In this document: positions 916 through 45,172 of the stretch, piece after piece
Layout of the letters: each line of letters begins with the position of its first letter
How positions within the stretch are numbered: position 1 is the stretch's first letter
Assembly (NCBI GenBank): GCA_951406725.2
Contig: OX597822.1
Location: 115,444,001 to 115,508,000 of the forward strand
Direction: 5' to 3'
DNA: 64,000 nucleotides
DNA from: Octopus vulgaris
Lineage: Eukaryota
Notes under the pieces: generated by a model
The model's input: only the letters and a program-made list of their open reading frames with translations
Databases searched by the model: none
What the model was told of the DNA's origin: nothing
Translations under genes and position numbers: made by a program

Positions 916-1263
916 TGCGTGTATGTACGTATATATGTATGTGTGTGTGTATGTGTGTAAATATACAGGATGCGTAAGGTATTTGAGGCCATACCTATAG
1001 GCGTAGGAAGCCTACCTATAGGCGCAGGAGTGACTGTTGGTAAGTAACTTGCTAACGAACCACATGGTTCCGGGTTCAGTCCACTGCATGGCATCTTGGG
1101 CAAGTGTCTTCCACTATAGCCTCCGGCCGAACAAAGCCTTGTGAGTGGATTTCGTAGACACAAACTAAATGAAGCCCGTCATATATATGTATATATATAT
1201 ATATATGTACGTATGTGTGTGTATATGTTTGTGTGTCTGTGTTTGCCCACCCCCAACATCGCT
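1..1263. repeat. Local tandem duplication, period about 812 bp (1-458 matches 813-1263)
   Basis: tcgtatataattccattcgtgcgata occurs at 1 and 813, each followed by (TA)n, the same transposon TIR and the same SINE 5' part, with a handful of substitutions. The first copy breaks off mid-SINE at about 458. Confidence 0.9.
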
Positions 1264-2740
1264 TGACAACCGATGTTGGTGTGTTTACGTCCCCGTAACA
1301 TAGCGGTTCGGCAAAAGTGACCGATAGTATATGTACTAGGCTTACAAAGAATAAGTCCAGGGGTTGATTTGCCCGACTAAAGGCAGTGATCCAGCATGGC
1401 CGCAGCCAAATGACTGAAATAAGTAAAAGTGTAAAAGAGTATACCTTTGTTGGGTCATTGCTGCATTTTTTGCTAACTCTGTATAATCTTTGTTTCAGGA
1501 AATAATAATGGCACATCCTCAGCTTGCTCAAGAAATGAAGGGGCATGCTGTTATTGTGGTTATAAAGGCTGAGCGTAGTGATTTAGAAATATTTCGATTT
1601 TTAAAAGTTGCTATCTACAAAGTTTGTAAGGCGCTAGAGAATGAAGATGGAAATATATCACTAATATCAAAGCATAAAGGCATTCTAAACGCTCTTAAAT
1701 CATCGGAAGACTTGAATATAAATTCAAGTGTTATATAAATTTCACCATTTCACCAAAGATTCTTTGAAAGCTGCCATAGTCAGAGTAATGTCCAAATTGA
1801 ACCAGGACCACTTGATTCAAGCATGTAGATGATTTAGATCTCGTATAGAAGCAGTTGTTGAAGCTGAAGGTGGCTTTCTTGAATAACATTTTAGAAAAGA
1901 AGGTTTATTTTTATCATATAAGTTTTATATGATGAAGAAAGGTCAATTTGTCAGAAAGTCAAAGGAACACCGCTACATCAGATCCAAAAGACCCTTAAAC
2001 AAACTGAAAAATCCAGCAGAAAATTTGATTTGGCTTCTCGCAAACGAGAAAAACTTCGACCAAGATCAAAAGGTTAACAGAAGAAATGACAGATGGTTAT
2101 GTGCAGACCCTTCTGAAGTTCCAAGGGTTATGCATACAAAATTTCCTGCAGTTGTCATAGTTTTAAGGGTTGTCAGCAATGAAGGACATGTGAGGCCTCC
2201 TTATATCTTTCCACAAGGCCTTAGAGTTAACTCTGCCGCCTCGTTGAGGTTCTGGAAATAATTGTTAAGCTCTCGATAGACAGTGTATGCAATGGAAGGT
2301 CATATGTGTTTCAGTAAGACTACACTATCACACATGGCTCTAGTAACACAAGAAAGAATGACTGAAAATGTTCATGATCACATAACATTTAACATTTGGC
2401 CTCCCAATTCTCCAGATCTCAATCCATTGGACTATTACATGTGGAGCGTTGTTCAGAGAGAGGTCAATGAACATGCCCATAACACCAAAGACACTTTGAA
2501 AGCTGCCTTAGTAAGAGTAATGTCCAAAATGAAGCAGGACCACTTGATTCGAGCATGAAGATGATTTAGATCTCATATAGAAGCAGCCGTTGAAGCTGAA
2601 GGTGGTTTTATTGAACAACATTGTAGAACATGTTTACTTTTATCCTCACAGCATTTTGTGATAAATAAAGTTGTTATCTGTTATTATATATCTGTTTTTT
2701 TTTATAAACATAAATATGTCCTCAAATATCTTACGCATTC

Positions 2741-2742
<2 letters not shown>
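966..2742 (+). mobile_element. Decayed Tc1/mariner-superfamily transposon, DD37D (maT-like)
   Basis: TIRs caggatgcgtaaggtatttgaggccata (966) and tatgtcctcaaatatcttacgcattctg (ending 2742), with TA at the left. Transposase fragments read NEKNFDQDQKVNRRNDRWL, YVFQ*D and WPPNSPDLNPLDYYMW. About 37 residues lie between the 2nd and 3rd catalytic Asp after allowing one frameshift. Confidence 0.85.
997..1440 (+). mobile_element. tRNA-derived SINE (family A), inserted in the maT element
   Basis: Head ggcgcaggagtgactgttggtaag...ggttccgggttcagtcc, internal (TA)/(TG) tract, tail tgactgaaataagtaaaag. Flanked by atacct at 991 and 1441. The family recurs throughout the window. Confidence 0.85.
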
Positions 2743-2808
<66 letters not shown>

Positions 2809-2847
2809 TATATGTATGTAAGTATGTATGTACGTATGTATATATGT

Positions 2848-4981
2848 ATAAAGGAAAAATTTAATCGTTAGTAAATGTGACTGAGAGTGTGGAAGTAACT
2901 ACATTCCTAGAAATAAGAGTTAAGAACTCTTAATACTGTGAGAATGATCGATTATATGCACCATGTGCTGAACTTGGTATGGATGGCAGAGACGATCCCA
3001 AATGACTAGAAGAAGGGTCTTTTGGTGAAGCTGCCGAAGAGTGGGGATTCATCACAGTGTGAAAAGTGGAGCGGAATTACCTGGCTTTCCATTCCAAGCA
3101 AAGTCCTTACAAGAATCATCTTGGAGCGATTGAAAGATACCATTTGCAAGCAATTCAGAGATGAGCAGGCGGGTTTCAGAAAGGAGAGATCATGCACGGA
3201 CTATACTGCGACGCTCAGAGTCATCGTGGAGCAGACAATGGAATGGCAAACGCCACTCTATGTGTGCTTCGTCGACTTTGACAGCAAAGACATACAGACA
3301 ATCTGGGACATCTTACGACACTGTGGTGTGCCAGAGAAGATCGTGGGCCTTATTCGATTACTCTACGAGGAGTTTTCTTGCCAGGTCATCCATACTGGGA
3401 GATTGTCGGAGGAATTCAGGGTCAACACGGGAGTGAGACGGCTGTTTGTTGTCACCGCTCCTGTTCCTCGTCGTGCTGGACTGGATCACCAGGACGGCCT
3501 ACGCTACCTCCGGGAAAGGTATTCAGTGGACACTGATGAACAGGCTGGAGGACTTGGACTACGCAGATGATCTCGAGCTACTGACACATCGCCTGCAAGA
3601 CATGCAAGATAAGGTAAACCACCTGACAGAAACTTCACGGTGCGTGGGCTTGAGGGTCAGCCGGGAAAAGACAAAGTGCTGCGTATCAACAATAAGCAGG
3701 AAGAACCAATCACAATCGAGGGAGAACCTGTGGAGGATGTTAGTGAGTTTGTTTATCTTGGCAGCAAGATCAGCAAATAAGGTGGATCAGACGAAGACAT
3801 CACGACAAGAAGGCTTGGCAAGCCTTCGCTATTCTTCGGCCGGTATGGAAGTCCACTACCATCTCAACTCGAACTAAACTCCGCTTATTTAGTTCAAACG
3901 TAAAATCTGTGTTTTTGTATGGCTCTGAAACATGGAGAGCCACCTGCAGCAACTACAAGAAGATCCAGACCTTTATCAACAAATGTCTCTGGCAGATCTC
4001 CATCTGAAGTGGCTCGACAGAATGCCAAACACCGACCTGTGGGAAAGGGCCAACCAGGAGCCCATACATGTTCAGATTAGATGAAGGAAATGGAGATGAA
4101 CCGGATATAGACTGCGGAAAGAACCCTCAAATGTGACACGACAAGCAGTTTACTGGAACCCGCAGGGGAAAAGGAAGCGAGGACGCCCGAAGCAGACATG
4201 GAAGCGGAGCATTTTGGACGAGCTCAGGACCACCGGCCTGACATGGGAAGCAGCCAAGAAACACGCCAATGACCGCAAAAAGGGGAAAACAACCGTTGAG
4301 GCCCTATGCTCCACAAGGGGCAAAGAGGATTAAGAGAGACAGAATACTGTGAGAAGAGCGCAAAATATATACACTGACGGGGTAGGTAACTGCCCCATGA
4401 CCATCTCTAGAATCACTAGACTTCTTTTGTCTATTTCTTAGGCACCGTCATTAGTGACGACTCAAATGGTCGTTGGTTTGGCTAAAACCGTCTACCAGTA
4501 ATATAGTTTTACCATAAATATTTATGACTGATTTAACGAAATGCTAATAAGTACTAAAAATTAATATAGCCACATCTACTGACGACAAATTTTTTCTTTT
4601 ATGGTATTATATTGCGCCTAGCTGTTTACATTAATATTTAGTATACACATTAGCATTTCGCTAAATCATCCATAATCTTTTATGGTAAAAATATATAAAC
4701 TGGAAGATAGATTTGGCGAAACAATCCACCGTTTGAATAATCACAACTGATGATACCTACGAAATAGTCTAAACTAGTCTAATTTAGTAATTTTAGAGAC
4801 GGTCATGGGCGGTTACCTCCCCTGTCACTCAATATATTTTGCACTCTTCTTACAGTGTTAAGAACTTTTAACTCTTGTTTCTAGCAATGTAGGTGCTTCG
4901 GCACTCTGAGTAACATTTAGTGACGATTAAATTGTTCCTTTACTATAATATATTGCGCCTAGCTGTTTATATTAGTTTTTA

Positions 4982-9580: not shown

Positions 9581-9800
9581 TATTATCATTATTATTATTA
9601 TCATTATTATTATTATTATTATTGCTATTTTTATTATTATTTCTATTATTGTTGTTGTTACTATTCATTCTATCCCTAGCTAACTTAGTAATTTTGCTAT
9701 TAAGTCTAGCTATTATGGTAACCATATTTGTGAGAGTAGAATATGATATTCTTACTGATTTCCTAGAAATTATTTTATAATATTTATGGGAGGCCAAACA
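7584..9800 (-). mobile_element. 5'-truncated Penelope-like element: linker, GIY-YIG endonuclease and long 3' region
   Basis: ORFs 9141-9797 and 8844-9077 read VRISYSTLTNM, CNCRIRSKCPLSGLC, VIYKCTI..YFGC, LSSKIWELK, CELCSMETYEI, LLNNRSEL..CIH. One premature stop. Hammerhead motif near the 3' end. Confidence 0.85.
7714..7805 (-). ncRNA. Type I hammerhead motif with long stem II, slightly decayed
   Basis: Reverse strand AAUGG-CUGAUGA-GUGCU...AGUGC-GAAA-CGAUCA-UA-CCAAAUU. Stem III is one transition away from palindromic CGAUCG. Confidence 0.65.
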
Positions 9801-9805
9801 TGATA

Positions 9806-10189
9806 GATAAAATGACTTAGCGGTTCGACAAACGAGATCGATAAAATGACGTAGCAGTTCGCCAAACTAGAGCGATAAAATGACTTAGCGGTTCACCAAA
9901 CTAGATCGATAAAATGACTTAGCGGTTCGCCAAACGAGATCGATAAAATGACGTTGCGGTTCTCCAAACTAGATCGATAAAATGACTTAGCGATTCACCA
10001 TACTAGATGATAAAATGACTTAGCGGTTCATCAAAGAGGATCGAGAAATTGACGTAGCTGTTCGCCAAACGAGTTCGATAAAAGGACTTCGTGGTTCGCC
10101 AAACAAGATCGATAAAATGACTTAGTGGTTCACCAAACGAGATCGATAAAATGACTTAGGGGTTCGCCAAAGATGATCGATAAAATGAC
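9806..10189 (+). repeat. Minisatellite, about 34-bp unit x 11
   Basis: Consensus gataaaatgacttagcggttcgccaaacgagatc, head-to-tail with no unique spacers. Confidence 0.95.
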
Positions 10190-13492: not shown

Positions 13493-13495
<3 letters not shown>

Positions 13496-13735
13496 AACAA
13501 TTGAGGTGTGGAAGGTGTTTGTAAGCCTTTTAAGAAACACATTTAATTTGTCAAAATATTTTCGTCGCTTTGAGACCGCGACCTGTTCACTGACAAATTA
13601 AATTTAAATGTTGAAGCGAATCTACCGGTTTTTGTGTGTTTCTTAAATGGCTTATAAATATCTTCCACGCTGCAACTGTTTTTGCTCCAGCACACGATCT
13701 CAGATCTGGTTCCTTGCTATGCAAGTACATCTCCG

Positions 13736-13740
<5 letters not shown>
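13493..13740. mobile_element. Short fold-back element in (TA)n; family also at about 24140-24585 and 44570-44757
   Basis: gtgtggaaggtgtttgtaagcc..taagaaacac is inverted with gtgtttcttaaatggcttataaatatcttccacgc. Shared ttgctatgcaagtacat terminus in all three copies. Confidence 0.8.
13549..13595 (-). ncRNA. Hammerhead-like motif with G3-C8 core variant
   Basis: Reverse strand UGUCA-GUGAACA-G-GUCGC ggucucaaa GCGAC-GAAA-AUAU-UU-UGACA. Confidence 0.65.
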
Positions 13741-23267: not shown

Positions 23268-24252
23268 CGGGGAAGAGAGAACATTGCAAACAATGAACGA
23301 AATAAACATGAAATGAAAAAATCGTATAAATAAAAGGGCATTACAATAGATGTATGCGACCCCCGACTTTGTTGCCTCATAATATCCAGAAAAATGGATA
23401 CTTTTTAACAAAAGTTTCTACAATACCGCTTAGACATTGTGGTTTCAGAGTATATAGGGATTTATAGGAAAGAATTTTTCCAAGAGGGTGGAGAGAGGAA
23501 TTTCCGAAAATTCCCCAATATCTGACTTTTTTCCCTCATAACTTTCAGGAAGATATCTTTTAATGTACCTTTAATGAAAATTTATACAAATCCCTTTCAA
23601 ACGGCGCAGATTATGATTATTAAAAAATGCGTGGAAAAAATTTTTTTCAGGGATTTTCCTGGTTTTTTTTTTTAAACCCCACCCTTCGAAATGATGGGGT
23701 TAGGCGGAGGGTAACTTTGTATGAAAAACGTTTTGAAAACTCTTTTTTTACTCCCCCCCTCCCTCATCATCCCATTGCGGACTATTTTAGCCCATTTTTT
23801 TTTGTACTTCAAAACCATGGGAAGAGCATTTTCGGTAAATTCTTTTTTTAATTATTAATATTTTCAGAGGGAAAATTGAGTGATTTAAGGGCGATTTGGC
23901 TGTTGTTTCTAGCACATACAAAGACAACCCACCTCGTTTCTTCATCACTCTCGCATGTATTGATGTTTTTCAATATTTCTTCTTCATAAATACATTCATA
24001 TGCTTTAAAAAAGAAAATTTAGGAAATCATAAAATTTTGCAGCCCTACTCCCTGCCCACGATTGTTTCTGTTTAGAAATTAAAATATTAGAGAGCCGGAG
24101 AAGGTCTTTGCTGGCATTTATCCACAGTGATTTAAAAAATTACGGATATGTACTTGCATAGCAAGTAACTTGAGAGCGTGTGCTGAAACAAAAACAATTG
24201 CAGTGTAGATGTTTGTAAGACATTCATGAACACACAAAAACCGTTAATTTCA

Positions 24253-24465
24253 CGGCAGTACTTAAATACAGAAGTCCCGATGCATCTACGTAACGACATG
24301 AAGAGGTGGGTTAGTTTTAGGGTTAGCTTTTAGGGTTAAGGTTAGGGTTAGTTTTAAGGTTAGTTAGGGTTAGGGTATCATTACACATCTATACAGCGTA
24401 CGTTTAAAATGTTTTGTACGTAACAACAATACTTAAGTAGTACTTCTGTATCTAAGTAGTATCAG
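24253..24465. mobile_element. MITE containing degenerate TTAGGG repeats, inserted in the fold-back element
   Basis: Inverted tacttaaatacagaagt (24259) and acttctgtatctaagta (24442-24458). tttca flanks both sides (24248-24252, 24466-24470). ggttagggtt-type array at 24309-24376. Confidence 0.65.
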
Positions 24466-24493: not shown

Positions 24494-24540
24494 TGTCAAA
24501 ATATTTTCGTCGCTTTGAGACCGCGACCTGTTCACTGACA
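24494..24540 (-). ncRNA. Second copy of the G3-C8 hammerhead-like motif
   Basis: 47 nt identical to 13549-13595. Confidence 0.65.
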
Positions 24541-25914
24541 AAACTTCACAAAATAATGTGGCACGAAGTTTTGTCAGTGAACAGCTCACACACACACACA
24601 CACACACACACACATTCATTGCCTTTCATTTGTGTGTATGTCCATCTAATTGTGTGTACGATTGTGTATTGATGTGTGTGTGTGTGTGTGTGTGTGTGTA
24701 AAGAAGTTGAAGATACACTTGGAGTCTGTATGAGGATTTATTTACATTTGCTTAACTACTTCCATAATTTCAGTTTTTACAGAAGTTTTATAATCTGGAA
24801 CTCTCTGAAACTCTAGCATATGTGTCTCGAACCGTATGTGTCTCCTTTTTACACACAAGTTAGAGCTCAGCTTGCAATCAGTTAAGGTACAATTTGATTG
24901 GTTGAAGATAGTTACCAGGTCAGGCATAGAATTTCGCACGACTTCTTGACTCCTGCATATTGGGCTCCGCAGACTATATTAACGATAACTGCGTCAAAAG
25001 ATAAGGTTGTGAATAAACCGCTTGACAGTATGAATACCAGTTGTGCGTTATGTTGCGTCTTAGATCAAATGATAGCATGAGCGATAATTTCACCAAAAGT
25101 CAAGGTTGTGTTAATTTAGTGAATGTCTCATGTGACTGTATCGACAATAAGTTTTCAAAATAGCTATGGAAGTAGGGATTAGGCTGCTTTCTTCTATGCA
25201 AGTAAAACGTTTATATATCATATACGAAGGGTTAAATAGCTTTTCATTACGTTTTTATTTGACATTTCTGATACTGCACGCTATGGTATAAATAATGGGA
25301 TTTTTTCCTGAATGAGATAAGACACATTGTTGCTCTACCTCAGAAAGATATACTGCATTTAAATGTATTGGTTGACACTGTCCAGGGGACTTTGTCACGT
25401 TTATGTCTTACTTTCTACTTGTCTTAGTCAGTGAACTGCTGGCATGTCGGATCACAACCTTGAAGGATTTTGTTGGACAAAGTTTAATACTCTTTCTATT
25501 GGTTTCTTTTACCGAACAGCTAATGTAAAAGAAGAACCCAAGATCACCTAGGAAAAATATTTGGAATCGTTTACAGTTCTATGATCGTCTGCAGTTTTGC
25601 TCTTATCATAGAAACTGGGTGGAACATCCATTTTATCAACTTTTATTCTCCCTTTGCTCATTGTTCATCAACCTCAAAATGCAATCCTAAGTACGCACTT
25701 TTAATGTCTATCCATCATGATACATGGTGGTGGCATTTCTGCAGAGAGAGAAGAGCAGATATTTAGATAATGTCTCCAAGTACATTAATATACTCCAAAA
25801 CCTCACCATCCATTTTTGCACTGTATTCTTAGAGACTGCAGCACCTTATCTATCATGCTGCAAAATGTATAAATGTATGTTTAAGAACTACTGATATTAT
25901 TCTAATTAATTAAG

Positions 25915-44301: not shown

Positions 44302-45172
44302 GTTTCTTTATAAGACACACAGGGCTGCACACAGATGGGACAAATTACAAGGTAGAGCTTTTCTTTTGTGGGATTAAATAAAATTTTTATAAAACCCAGA
44401 AGAAACAAAAAAAAAGTGGCGTAGGTTTTCGATCAAAAGGGATCGTAAAAGGGGAGAAAAGGAAAAAAAAGAAAAGAAAAGAAAGGAAAAAAAAGGAAAA
44501 GAAAAATAAAGGAAGAAAAAAGAGGAAAAAAGGGGGAGAGGAAAAAAAACGAAGATAGATGGATAGATATACAATTGCAGTGTGGTAGGCGTTTATAAGC
44601 CATTTAATTTGCCAAAATATTTTAAATTTAAATGTTGAAGTGAATCTAACGGTTTTTGTATGTTTCTTAGATGGCTTATAAACACCTTCCACGCTGCAAT
44701 TGTTTTCATTCCAGCATACGATCTCAGATCAGGTCACTTACTAGGCAAGTACATATTTATATATATATATATATATATCTGACATCCACACACACACACA
44801 CACGCGCGTTCTCTCTGGGTAAAAATAAATCAAACAAGTATAGCCACGGATGGAACGTCTCTGATCCCAGATGTGCTCAAAAAACACCGACGATCAAAGA
44901 CAGTCATCTAACAAGCGAAAAAAAATAAATAACAAACATTCTTTATCCACGACGTCCTAAAGCCGACAGACAGTGACGTGATCAGAGAGACATTTCAGCT
45001 GTTGTTTCTAGCAGGATGAAGACTAGGTCGAGGCACTCACGTCGCCTGGTCAAATTGTCTCTCGTTAAAGCAGCTGTTGCTAGAAATCAATTAGCAAACA
45101 CCATTGTAAACCGTCTGTCAACTGCTGTGACCTCTTAATGTCTCCACAAGTGTGACTTGGTCGGTGACGGCA

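Follow-up and report, generated by a model that had tools for sequence, protein, structure and literature searches.

The two identical 47-mers and their surroundings

The sequence analyzed here, referred to as the window, is a 64,000-nucleotide stretch of the Octopus vulgaris genome, which totals 2.8 Gb, is distributed over about 30 large contigs, and is rich in microsatellites. Two copies of a 47-nt motif are found on its minus strand (Table 1), and direct comparison confirmed the original prediction that they are identical. Between the two strands of stem I (UGUCA/UGACA, 5 bp) each copy contains, in order, the core segment GUGAACA, an extra G, stem II (GUCGC/GCGAC) with a 9-nt loop, GAAA, AUAU, and UU; all of the parts named in the prediction were located in the sequence. 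The motif has the features of a type I hammerhead (stem I of 5-7 bp, a 5/5 stem II, G10.1-C11.1, GAAA, and a UUU triplet), as well as two that are found in the minimal hammerheads of Penelope-like elements (PLEs), namely an extra nucleotide after position 9 and before 10.1, which is G here, and a palindromic stem III, AAUAUU. The canonical core, C3 U G A N G8 A, is absent from the 47-mer, and the Watson-Crick pair between positions 3 and 8 is present as G-C. The cut position derived here is the same as the one originally predicted. The two 47-mers were the only matches to a relaxed hammerhead search of the window that were confirmed by BLAST. No hammerhead model was among the eight Rfam matches with E ≤ 10 at 13500-13700, and the 150 listed of the 308 Rfam matches across the window contained only microsatellite-driven miRNA matches.

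Table 1. Coordinates of the hammerhead-like motifs and associated features in the window
Feature	Position	Strand	Basis
Minimal type I hammerhead motif, copy 1 (subfamily A)	13549..13595	-	sequence, fold
Core positions 3-9, GUGAACA; G3-C8 replaces C3-G8	13584..13590	-	sequence
Stem III segment AAUAUU (A15.1 to U16.1), self-complementary; predicted intermolecular pairing	13555..13560	-	
Predicted cut site, copy 1	between 13554 and 13553	-	
Remainder of element 3' end in its short form, which lacks about 30-40 nt, then (AT)n	13495..13548	-	
Inverted 5'-truncated arm of the same element, roughly 60-nt tail, then (AT)n; joined via stem I self-complementarity	13591..13739	+	
Hammerhead motif, copy 2 (subfamily B context)	24494..24540	-	
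Short inverted arm located upstream of copy 2; if transcribed, would lock the core into a hairpin	24565..24585	+	predicted fold
Insertion interrupting copy 2; 17-bp imperfect inverted ends, TAACCC-like repeats	24250..24458	.	
Remainder of 3' end and tail, copy 2	24139..24249	-	
Third element copy with short inverted arm; hammerhead lost except part of the stem III palindrome	44571..44755	+	

In the predicted monomer fold stems I and II formed and stem III did not. Folding z-scores were -1.75 for the 47-mer and -1.43 to -3.38 when a few flanking bases were included. An active dimer can be drawn, which was predicted to be 2 kcal/mol less stable than two monomers, in a model that does not include tertiary and protein effects, and about 4-5 kcal/mol less stable than an inactive dimer with swapped stems II. 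A dimer that lies 2 kcal/mol above the monomers fits a slow or assisted ribozyme, and fits an inactive one equally well.

The original prediction described the flanks of the two copies as homologous sequence diverged by substitutions and indels, but they are not simply diverged homologs. Copy 1 has upstream of it a second, inverted version of its own downstream arm, and copy 2, a member of a different subfamily, is interrupted by 209 bp of inserted sequence with inverted ends; because of this structure, the differences between the flanks are attributed to subfamily, inversion, and insertion. The possibility that the inverted arm of copy 1 starts at the cut position was rejected, as its junction is explained by 5-7 nt of microhomology in stem I. 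The MITE-like insertion in copy 2 was found in 3 of 30 subfamily-B loci (L288, L291, and L296). Loop 2 of copy 2 has the subfamily A letter at a position where 17 of 20 B copies differ. Several subfamily-B copies, including the one in the window (24139 and beyond) and L284, L295, L299, L302, L303, L306, L309, and L310, continue past the tail into shared sequence instead of (AT)n, which could be either a longer end or part of a composite element. Elsewhere in the window (9793-10189) there is a tandem array of 11.7 copies of a 34-bp unit that resembles part of an interspersed repeat found at another place in the window. For the host locus, both copies of the motif appear to be dead fragments, ordinary transposon debris.

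The parent element and related families

Genomic copies of the motif terminate at either of two fixed 3' ends, which are separated by about 60 nt and mostly followed by (AT)n, and have variable 5' ends and, frequently, an inverted truncated arm. Upstream of the motif there is an (ACAT)n-rich region and then the end of an ORF with a CxxC linker and GIY-YIG motifs. In 13 of 30 loci selected by the ORF, which extended only 1.5 kb past the match, the motif was found 0.9-1.45 kb downstream of the ORF on the same strand. Four of these 13 copies, all on contig C16 (L201, L209, L213, and L219), had an unpaired G3.G8 core and are probably a local duplication. A protein search identified three young copies of a lineage designated C, 1.4-1.7% apart, whose open frames measure 1025, 839, and 392+615 aa; all three had the G3-C8 motif with a different, 8-nt loop 2. 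The 3' UTRs of L315-L317, from this lineage, contain a unique insert of roughly 200 nt in the (ACAT)n region that older copies do not have. The GIY-YIG domain of L315 scored above the Pfam cut-off (PF01541, E = 1.8e-5). RVT_1 did not match L315 or L316, so the reverse transcriptase (RT) was assigned from motifs read by eye and from 45-50% identity to other proteins. The long tail was present in 59 of 101 young copies, an inverted arm was present in L315/L472 as well as in the window, and in L474 the tail end continued towards the ORF. None of the three young loci had a full direct tandem pLTR-ORF-pLTR arrangement. Short tandem repeats that each carry a hammerhead, a feature of non-LTR retrozymes, were absent, and copies were dispersed or in inverted pairs. 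Judged by sequence, the 47-mer is a piece of the pLTR, at the 3' end of a Penelope-like retroelement that encodes an RT with a C-terminal GIY-YIG domain.

Other candidate parents were rejected. Neptune-type families recovered with a GIY-YIG search had the motif in none of 20 loci and in none of 10 extended loci with 781-aa ORFs, and an intact ORF adjoining the motif in L123 was part of a young insertion that is unrelated and has a 3' end of its own.

The optional tail, the inverted 5'-truncated copy, and the (TA)n targets agree with the anatomy of PLEs as described by Craig et al. (2021, PMC8557442), and the C-terminal GIY-YIG domain with its CX2-5CxxC linker is shared with the Nematis and Neptune clades of that study. 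The short linker resembles that of Nematis when compared by eye with Fig. S2, but because there are about 70 extra residues between RT3 and RT4, which the Nematis rows of Fig. S1 do not have, the element was not filed as Nematis. These extra residues were observed in L315, L316, and P0001-P0006, in other words in a PLE clade with a C-terminal endonuclease; in the passages of PMC8557442 covered, an insert at this place is described only for telomerases and PLEs with an N-terminal endonuclease.

The motif closely resembles the minimal (dimeric) type I hammerheads of metazoan PLEs (Cervera and de la Pena 2014, PMC4209133). Like these, it has a pLTR position, a short stem I, an extra nucleotide between 9 and 10.1, G10.1-C11.1, and a palindromic 15.2-16.2, and it is found mostly in solitary truncated copies and opposite-strand pairs. 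According to the text covered of PMC4209133, the extra nucleotide, G10.1-C11.1, and the palindrome are typical of minimal PLE hammerheads, and the extra nucleotide after A9, which the original prediction listed among the traits of the motif, is thus normal. The extra nucleotide is G here, unlike the H of the published consensus, and while a U3-A8 core variant is described, G3-C8 does not appear in that text.

The pair between positions 3 and 8 was compared across related families, using a parsed motif table since a MAFFT alignment of eight family motifs misplaced one of them (L311). It was a Watson-Crick pair in all six families of the clade examined: G-C in the family described here, C-G in three, and U-A in two. 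A sister family (100/100 in the tree), represented by 27 loci of the same genome, has CUGAUGC, an extra G, GUCAC/GUGAC, and GAAA GAAC UU in 26 of them. Its core is C3-G8, with a compensatory change in stem II, but it also carries A9C and does not have a clean palindrome. The sister family (L318-L344) is young, with open frames of up to 1312 aa, and in L323 the motif is about 530 nt behind the ORF. All four metagenome relatives (37-50% identity) have the fold, with the extra base and the palindrome, about 100-140 nt behind the ORF; two (L312 and L314) are C3-G8 and two (L311 and L313) are U3-A8. None of 600 shuffles of six 3' regions gave such a match in a relaxed scan. The tree separated the element from two Neptune-type ORFs, with weak deeper branching. 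Because the fold is retained in five related families that have C3-G8 or U3-A8, G3-C8 appears to be a natural compensated swap, most simply explained as a derived double change. This covariation is the strongest evidence for the variant.

Other families in this genome also have hammerhead-like motifs. One Neptune-type family (L098, L100, L101, L104, and L109) has a U3-A8 core, no extra base, and the palindrome ACAUGU behind a GIY-YIG ORF. A very young Neptune-type family (L123:4488-6813 on the minus strand, L129, and L130), the top 40 hits of which are 100% identical, has a hammerhead-like motif in its 3' UTR with U4C (CCGAAGA), a 5-bp stem I, a palindromic stem III, and no G10.1-C11.1. Neptune-type loci L111-L120 have intact 781-aa ORFs and repeated TGATGACGT units in the 3' UTR, and had no hammerhead by descriptor. 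The A9C and the lack of a clean palindrome in the sister family, together with the Neptune-type U4C, suggest that selection on hammerhead cores may be relaxed in this genome.

As an engineered swap, G3-C8 has been described several times (PMC3884650, PMC8495972, PMC9901934, PMC11167929), and in a pairwise screen the G:C swap was the sole rescue seen in this region of the core (PMC9901934). Natural core variants, with U3-A8 covariation at 3-8 and a U4C that was tolerated in vivo, were described by Perreault et al. (2011, PMC3088659); the natural 3-8 covariation is shared with the families here, and G3-C8 is not mentioned in the passages covered of that study. A natural G3-C8 core was not found in the text of the hammerhead and PLE literature searched, though figures and some variant surveys lie outside that coverage and may list it.

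Conservation and the origin of inserted copies

A 40-base part of the motif has 974 exact matches in the genome, and two lineage C patterns have 2,416 and 3,275, so that the sub-motif counts range from 974 to 3,275. Among the first 30 of the 974 matches, 15 share both flanks, indicating passive copying inside something larger; in these loci (L003, L010-L012, L017, L020-L023, and L025-L030) one insertion was amplified within a larger repeat. With 974 matches in 2.8 Gb, about ten 64-kb windows are expected to contain two exact 40-mer matches, and simple arithmetic reduces this to about three if the passively copied half is removed.

The original argument that the motif is constrained was made from the identity of the two copies, and the comparison of divergence inside and outside the motif across many copies did not bear it out. 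Ninety copies were selected with a pattern located upstream of the motif, of which 7 were removed because they were not homologous along part of their length. In the remaining 83, the proportion of cells that deviated from the column majority was 7.7% in the motif versus 6.7% downstream, and at non-CpG sites it was 6.03% in the motif versus 6.01% in the flank (p = 0.96). Core positions alone deviated in 4.3% (p = 0.06). G3-C8 was kept in 61 of these older copies and the whole fold was intact in 26, while a subfamily change in stem I (21 of 83 copies) results in a G-U wobble. The exact 47-mer was present in only 2 of the 90 copies, and exact 47-nt identity was found in 3 of 3,403 pairs among longer copies. 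Inserted copies thus decay neutrally, and the earlier evidence for constraint fails; the identity of the two copies in the window likely reflects chance rather than local function. Among the 101 young copies, which were selected with a pattern located 22 nt downstream of the cut, 72 of 75 readable cores were G3-C8. None of 10 genome-wide matches to a variant pattern was a C3-G8 copy; one was U3-A8 and the others were mismatched.

Comparison of transposing lineages gave a different picture. Lineage C (L316) was compared with the majority of older A copies, in which the ORF and 3'-end majorities come from different copy sets and the ends could have been homogenized by template switching. In this comparison none of 38 non-loop motif positions differed, versus 35 of 154 fourfold sites (p = 0.0003), and 48 of 802 first and second codon positions differed. 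The unique 3' UTR differed by roughly 8-21% per 50-nt bin. Loop 2 was changed in both sequence and length. The 140 nt downstream differed at six positions (p = 0.34 against the motif), in other words were about as conserved as the motif, and the constraint therefore need not be on catalysis. Subfamilies A and B differ at 1 of 47 motif positions, in loop 2, and at about 8 of some 150 positions outside it, part of which was selected by the search pattern itself. G3-C8 is fixed in all three lineages. At the sequence level, constraint is visible only between transposing lineages and is not specific to the motif.

The 5' ends of the 101 young copies provided a record of the RNA that was inserted. 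Thirty were located at -63 to -57 relative to the cut and 15 beyond -90. Ten of the 11 copies that start at -59 follow a G that is absent from the upstream genomic sequence (p = 8e-6), although at least three of these could come from an inverted arm and two loci are duplicates; in an older set the extra G was found in 18 of 30. Such an extra 5' G in retrotransposon copies is a copied cap. There was no excess of 5' ends at the cut in the 101 young copies, with five within 3 nt, or 5 of the 19 ends in the region from -24 to +18 (p = 0.19). A peak at the cut had been hinted at by 2 of 30 copies (L300 and L307) and was gone in the young set. An acceptor-like sequence upstream of the motif was also considered as the end of a pLTR intron, which is less likely than a transcription start because upstream of the single extra G the copies have no exon sequence in common. 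In the search for expression, 20 runs had words in common with the stretch, and 2 of these had half or more. Since 5' ends accumulate at -59, mostly following an extra G, rather than at the cut, the inserted RNA was likely capped and uncut. We propose that transcription would start 59 nt upstream of the cut, and that the RT of the element would prime at two internal sites, giving the short and long 3' ends. By mostly copying capped, uncut RNA it would give rise to thousands of short copies in which the motif is retained in full, and selection on the motif would act only in transposing master lineages.

A close comparison for this system is PAc, the Poseidon element of the anole (PMC11167929). 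Its hammerhead needed protein for cleavage, and an engineered C3G/G8C form was partly active. In the portions of that study covered, PAc shares with the element described here a hammerhead in the pLTR, two internal RT start sites that give rise to a tail, and AT-rich targets, as well as unprocessed RNA as the main template, which for the octopus element is deduced from the copies. It differs in that G3-C8 is an engineered rescue in PAc and the natural state here, and in that the ORF here, which lies about 1 kb upstream, is from a different clade.

Readings of the variant core

With moderate confidence, the 47-mer is read as a hammerhead-type motif in the pLTR, at the 3' end of a PLE, with a natural, flipped G3-C8 pair; the motif is likely to cut slowly and to require either dimer formation or help from the protein of the element. 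The original prediction, a G3-C8 hammerhead variant that is slow or dimer-dependent, is thereby probably correct, and is supported by the pLTR position, the self-complementary stem III, and the three Watson-Crick forms of the 3-8 pair. The variant is real at the level of sequence and well supported by covariation, and cleavage is likely. It represents a new core variant within a known kind of ribozyme and a known kind of element.

It is less likely that the motif, though descended from a hammerhead, no longer cuts, its fold being kept for the needs of the RT or the promoter, such as template recognition, transcription start, or priming. This would agree with the conservation of the whole terminal 200 nt between lineages, rather than of the motif alone, with the derivation of inserted copies from uncut RNA, and with the A9C or U4C cores in other families of the genome. 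In vitro insertion of the anole PLE also did not need cleavage, and no reads ended at the cut site (PMC11167929, in the portions covered). However, the 3-8 pair remains Watson-Crick in all six families of the clade that were examined, in three forms; flipping it takes two changes, and the pair matters for an active core. Loop 2 also varies freely where core and stems do not. The hammerhead general-acid nucleotide sits in the 3-8 pair.

Individual selection of the two copies in the window as ribozymes exapted by the host is very improbable. Exact identity over 47 nt is uncommon and copy 2 carries the loop 2 letter of the other subfamily, but neutral decay of the 83 copies, the three to ten windows with two exact copies expected by chance, the 11 kb between the copies, and the inverted arm predicted to trap the core of copy 2 in a hairpin all argue against it. 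Even less probable is a chance look-alike in the inverted ends of a foldback or MITE-like DNA element. The window copies are indeed short and palindromic with no coding sequence, and no Rfam hammerhead matched at 13500-13700 with E ≤ 10; linkage of the motif to an RT/GIY-YIG ORF refutes such an origin, and the fixed 3' and variable 5' ends and the homologous canonical-core motifs behind related ORFs also speak against it.

If the preferred reading of a slow hammerhead is followed further, it may be suggested, tentatively, that a natural cleaving G3-C8 hammerhead was fixed in a recently active lineage because the slow core leaves most of the capped RNA uncut for reverse transcription. A natural G3-C8 backed by covariation would show that evolution uses a form known from engineered rescues, and thousands of motifs of this kind would escape descriptors that require CUGANGA or U3-A8. 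A likely transcription start, as well as the use of uncut RNA, can be read from the inserted copies. With its putatively slow natural core, near-intact ORFs, and a C3-G8 sister family, this family allows a direct test of the role of the hammerhead in PLEs. If the slow-core reading is true, the PLE families of this genome would constitute a natural panel of tuned cores (G3-C8, U3-A8, A9C, and U4C) for probing that role.
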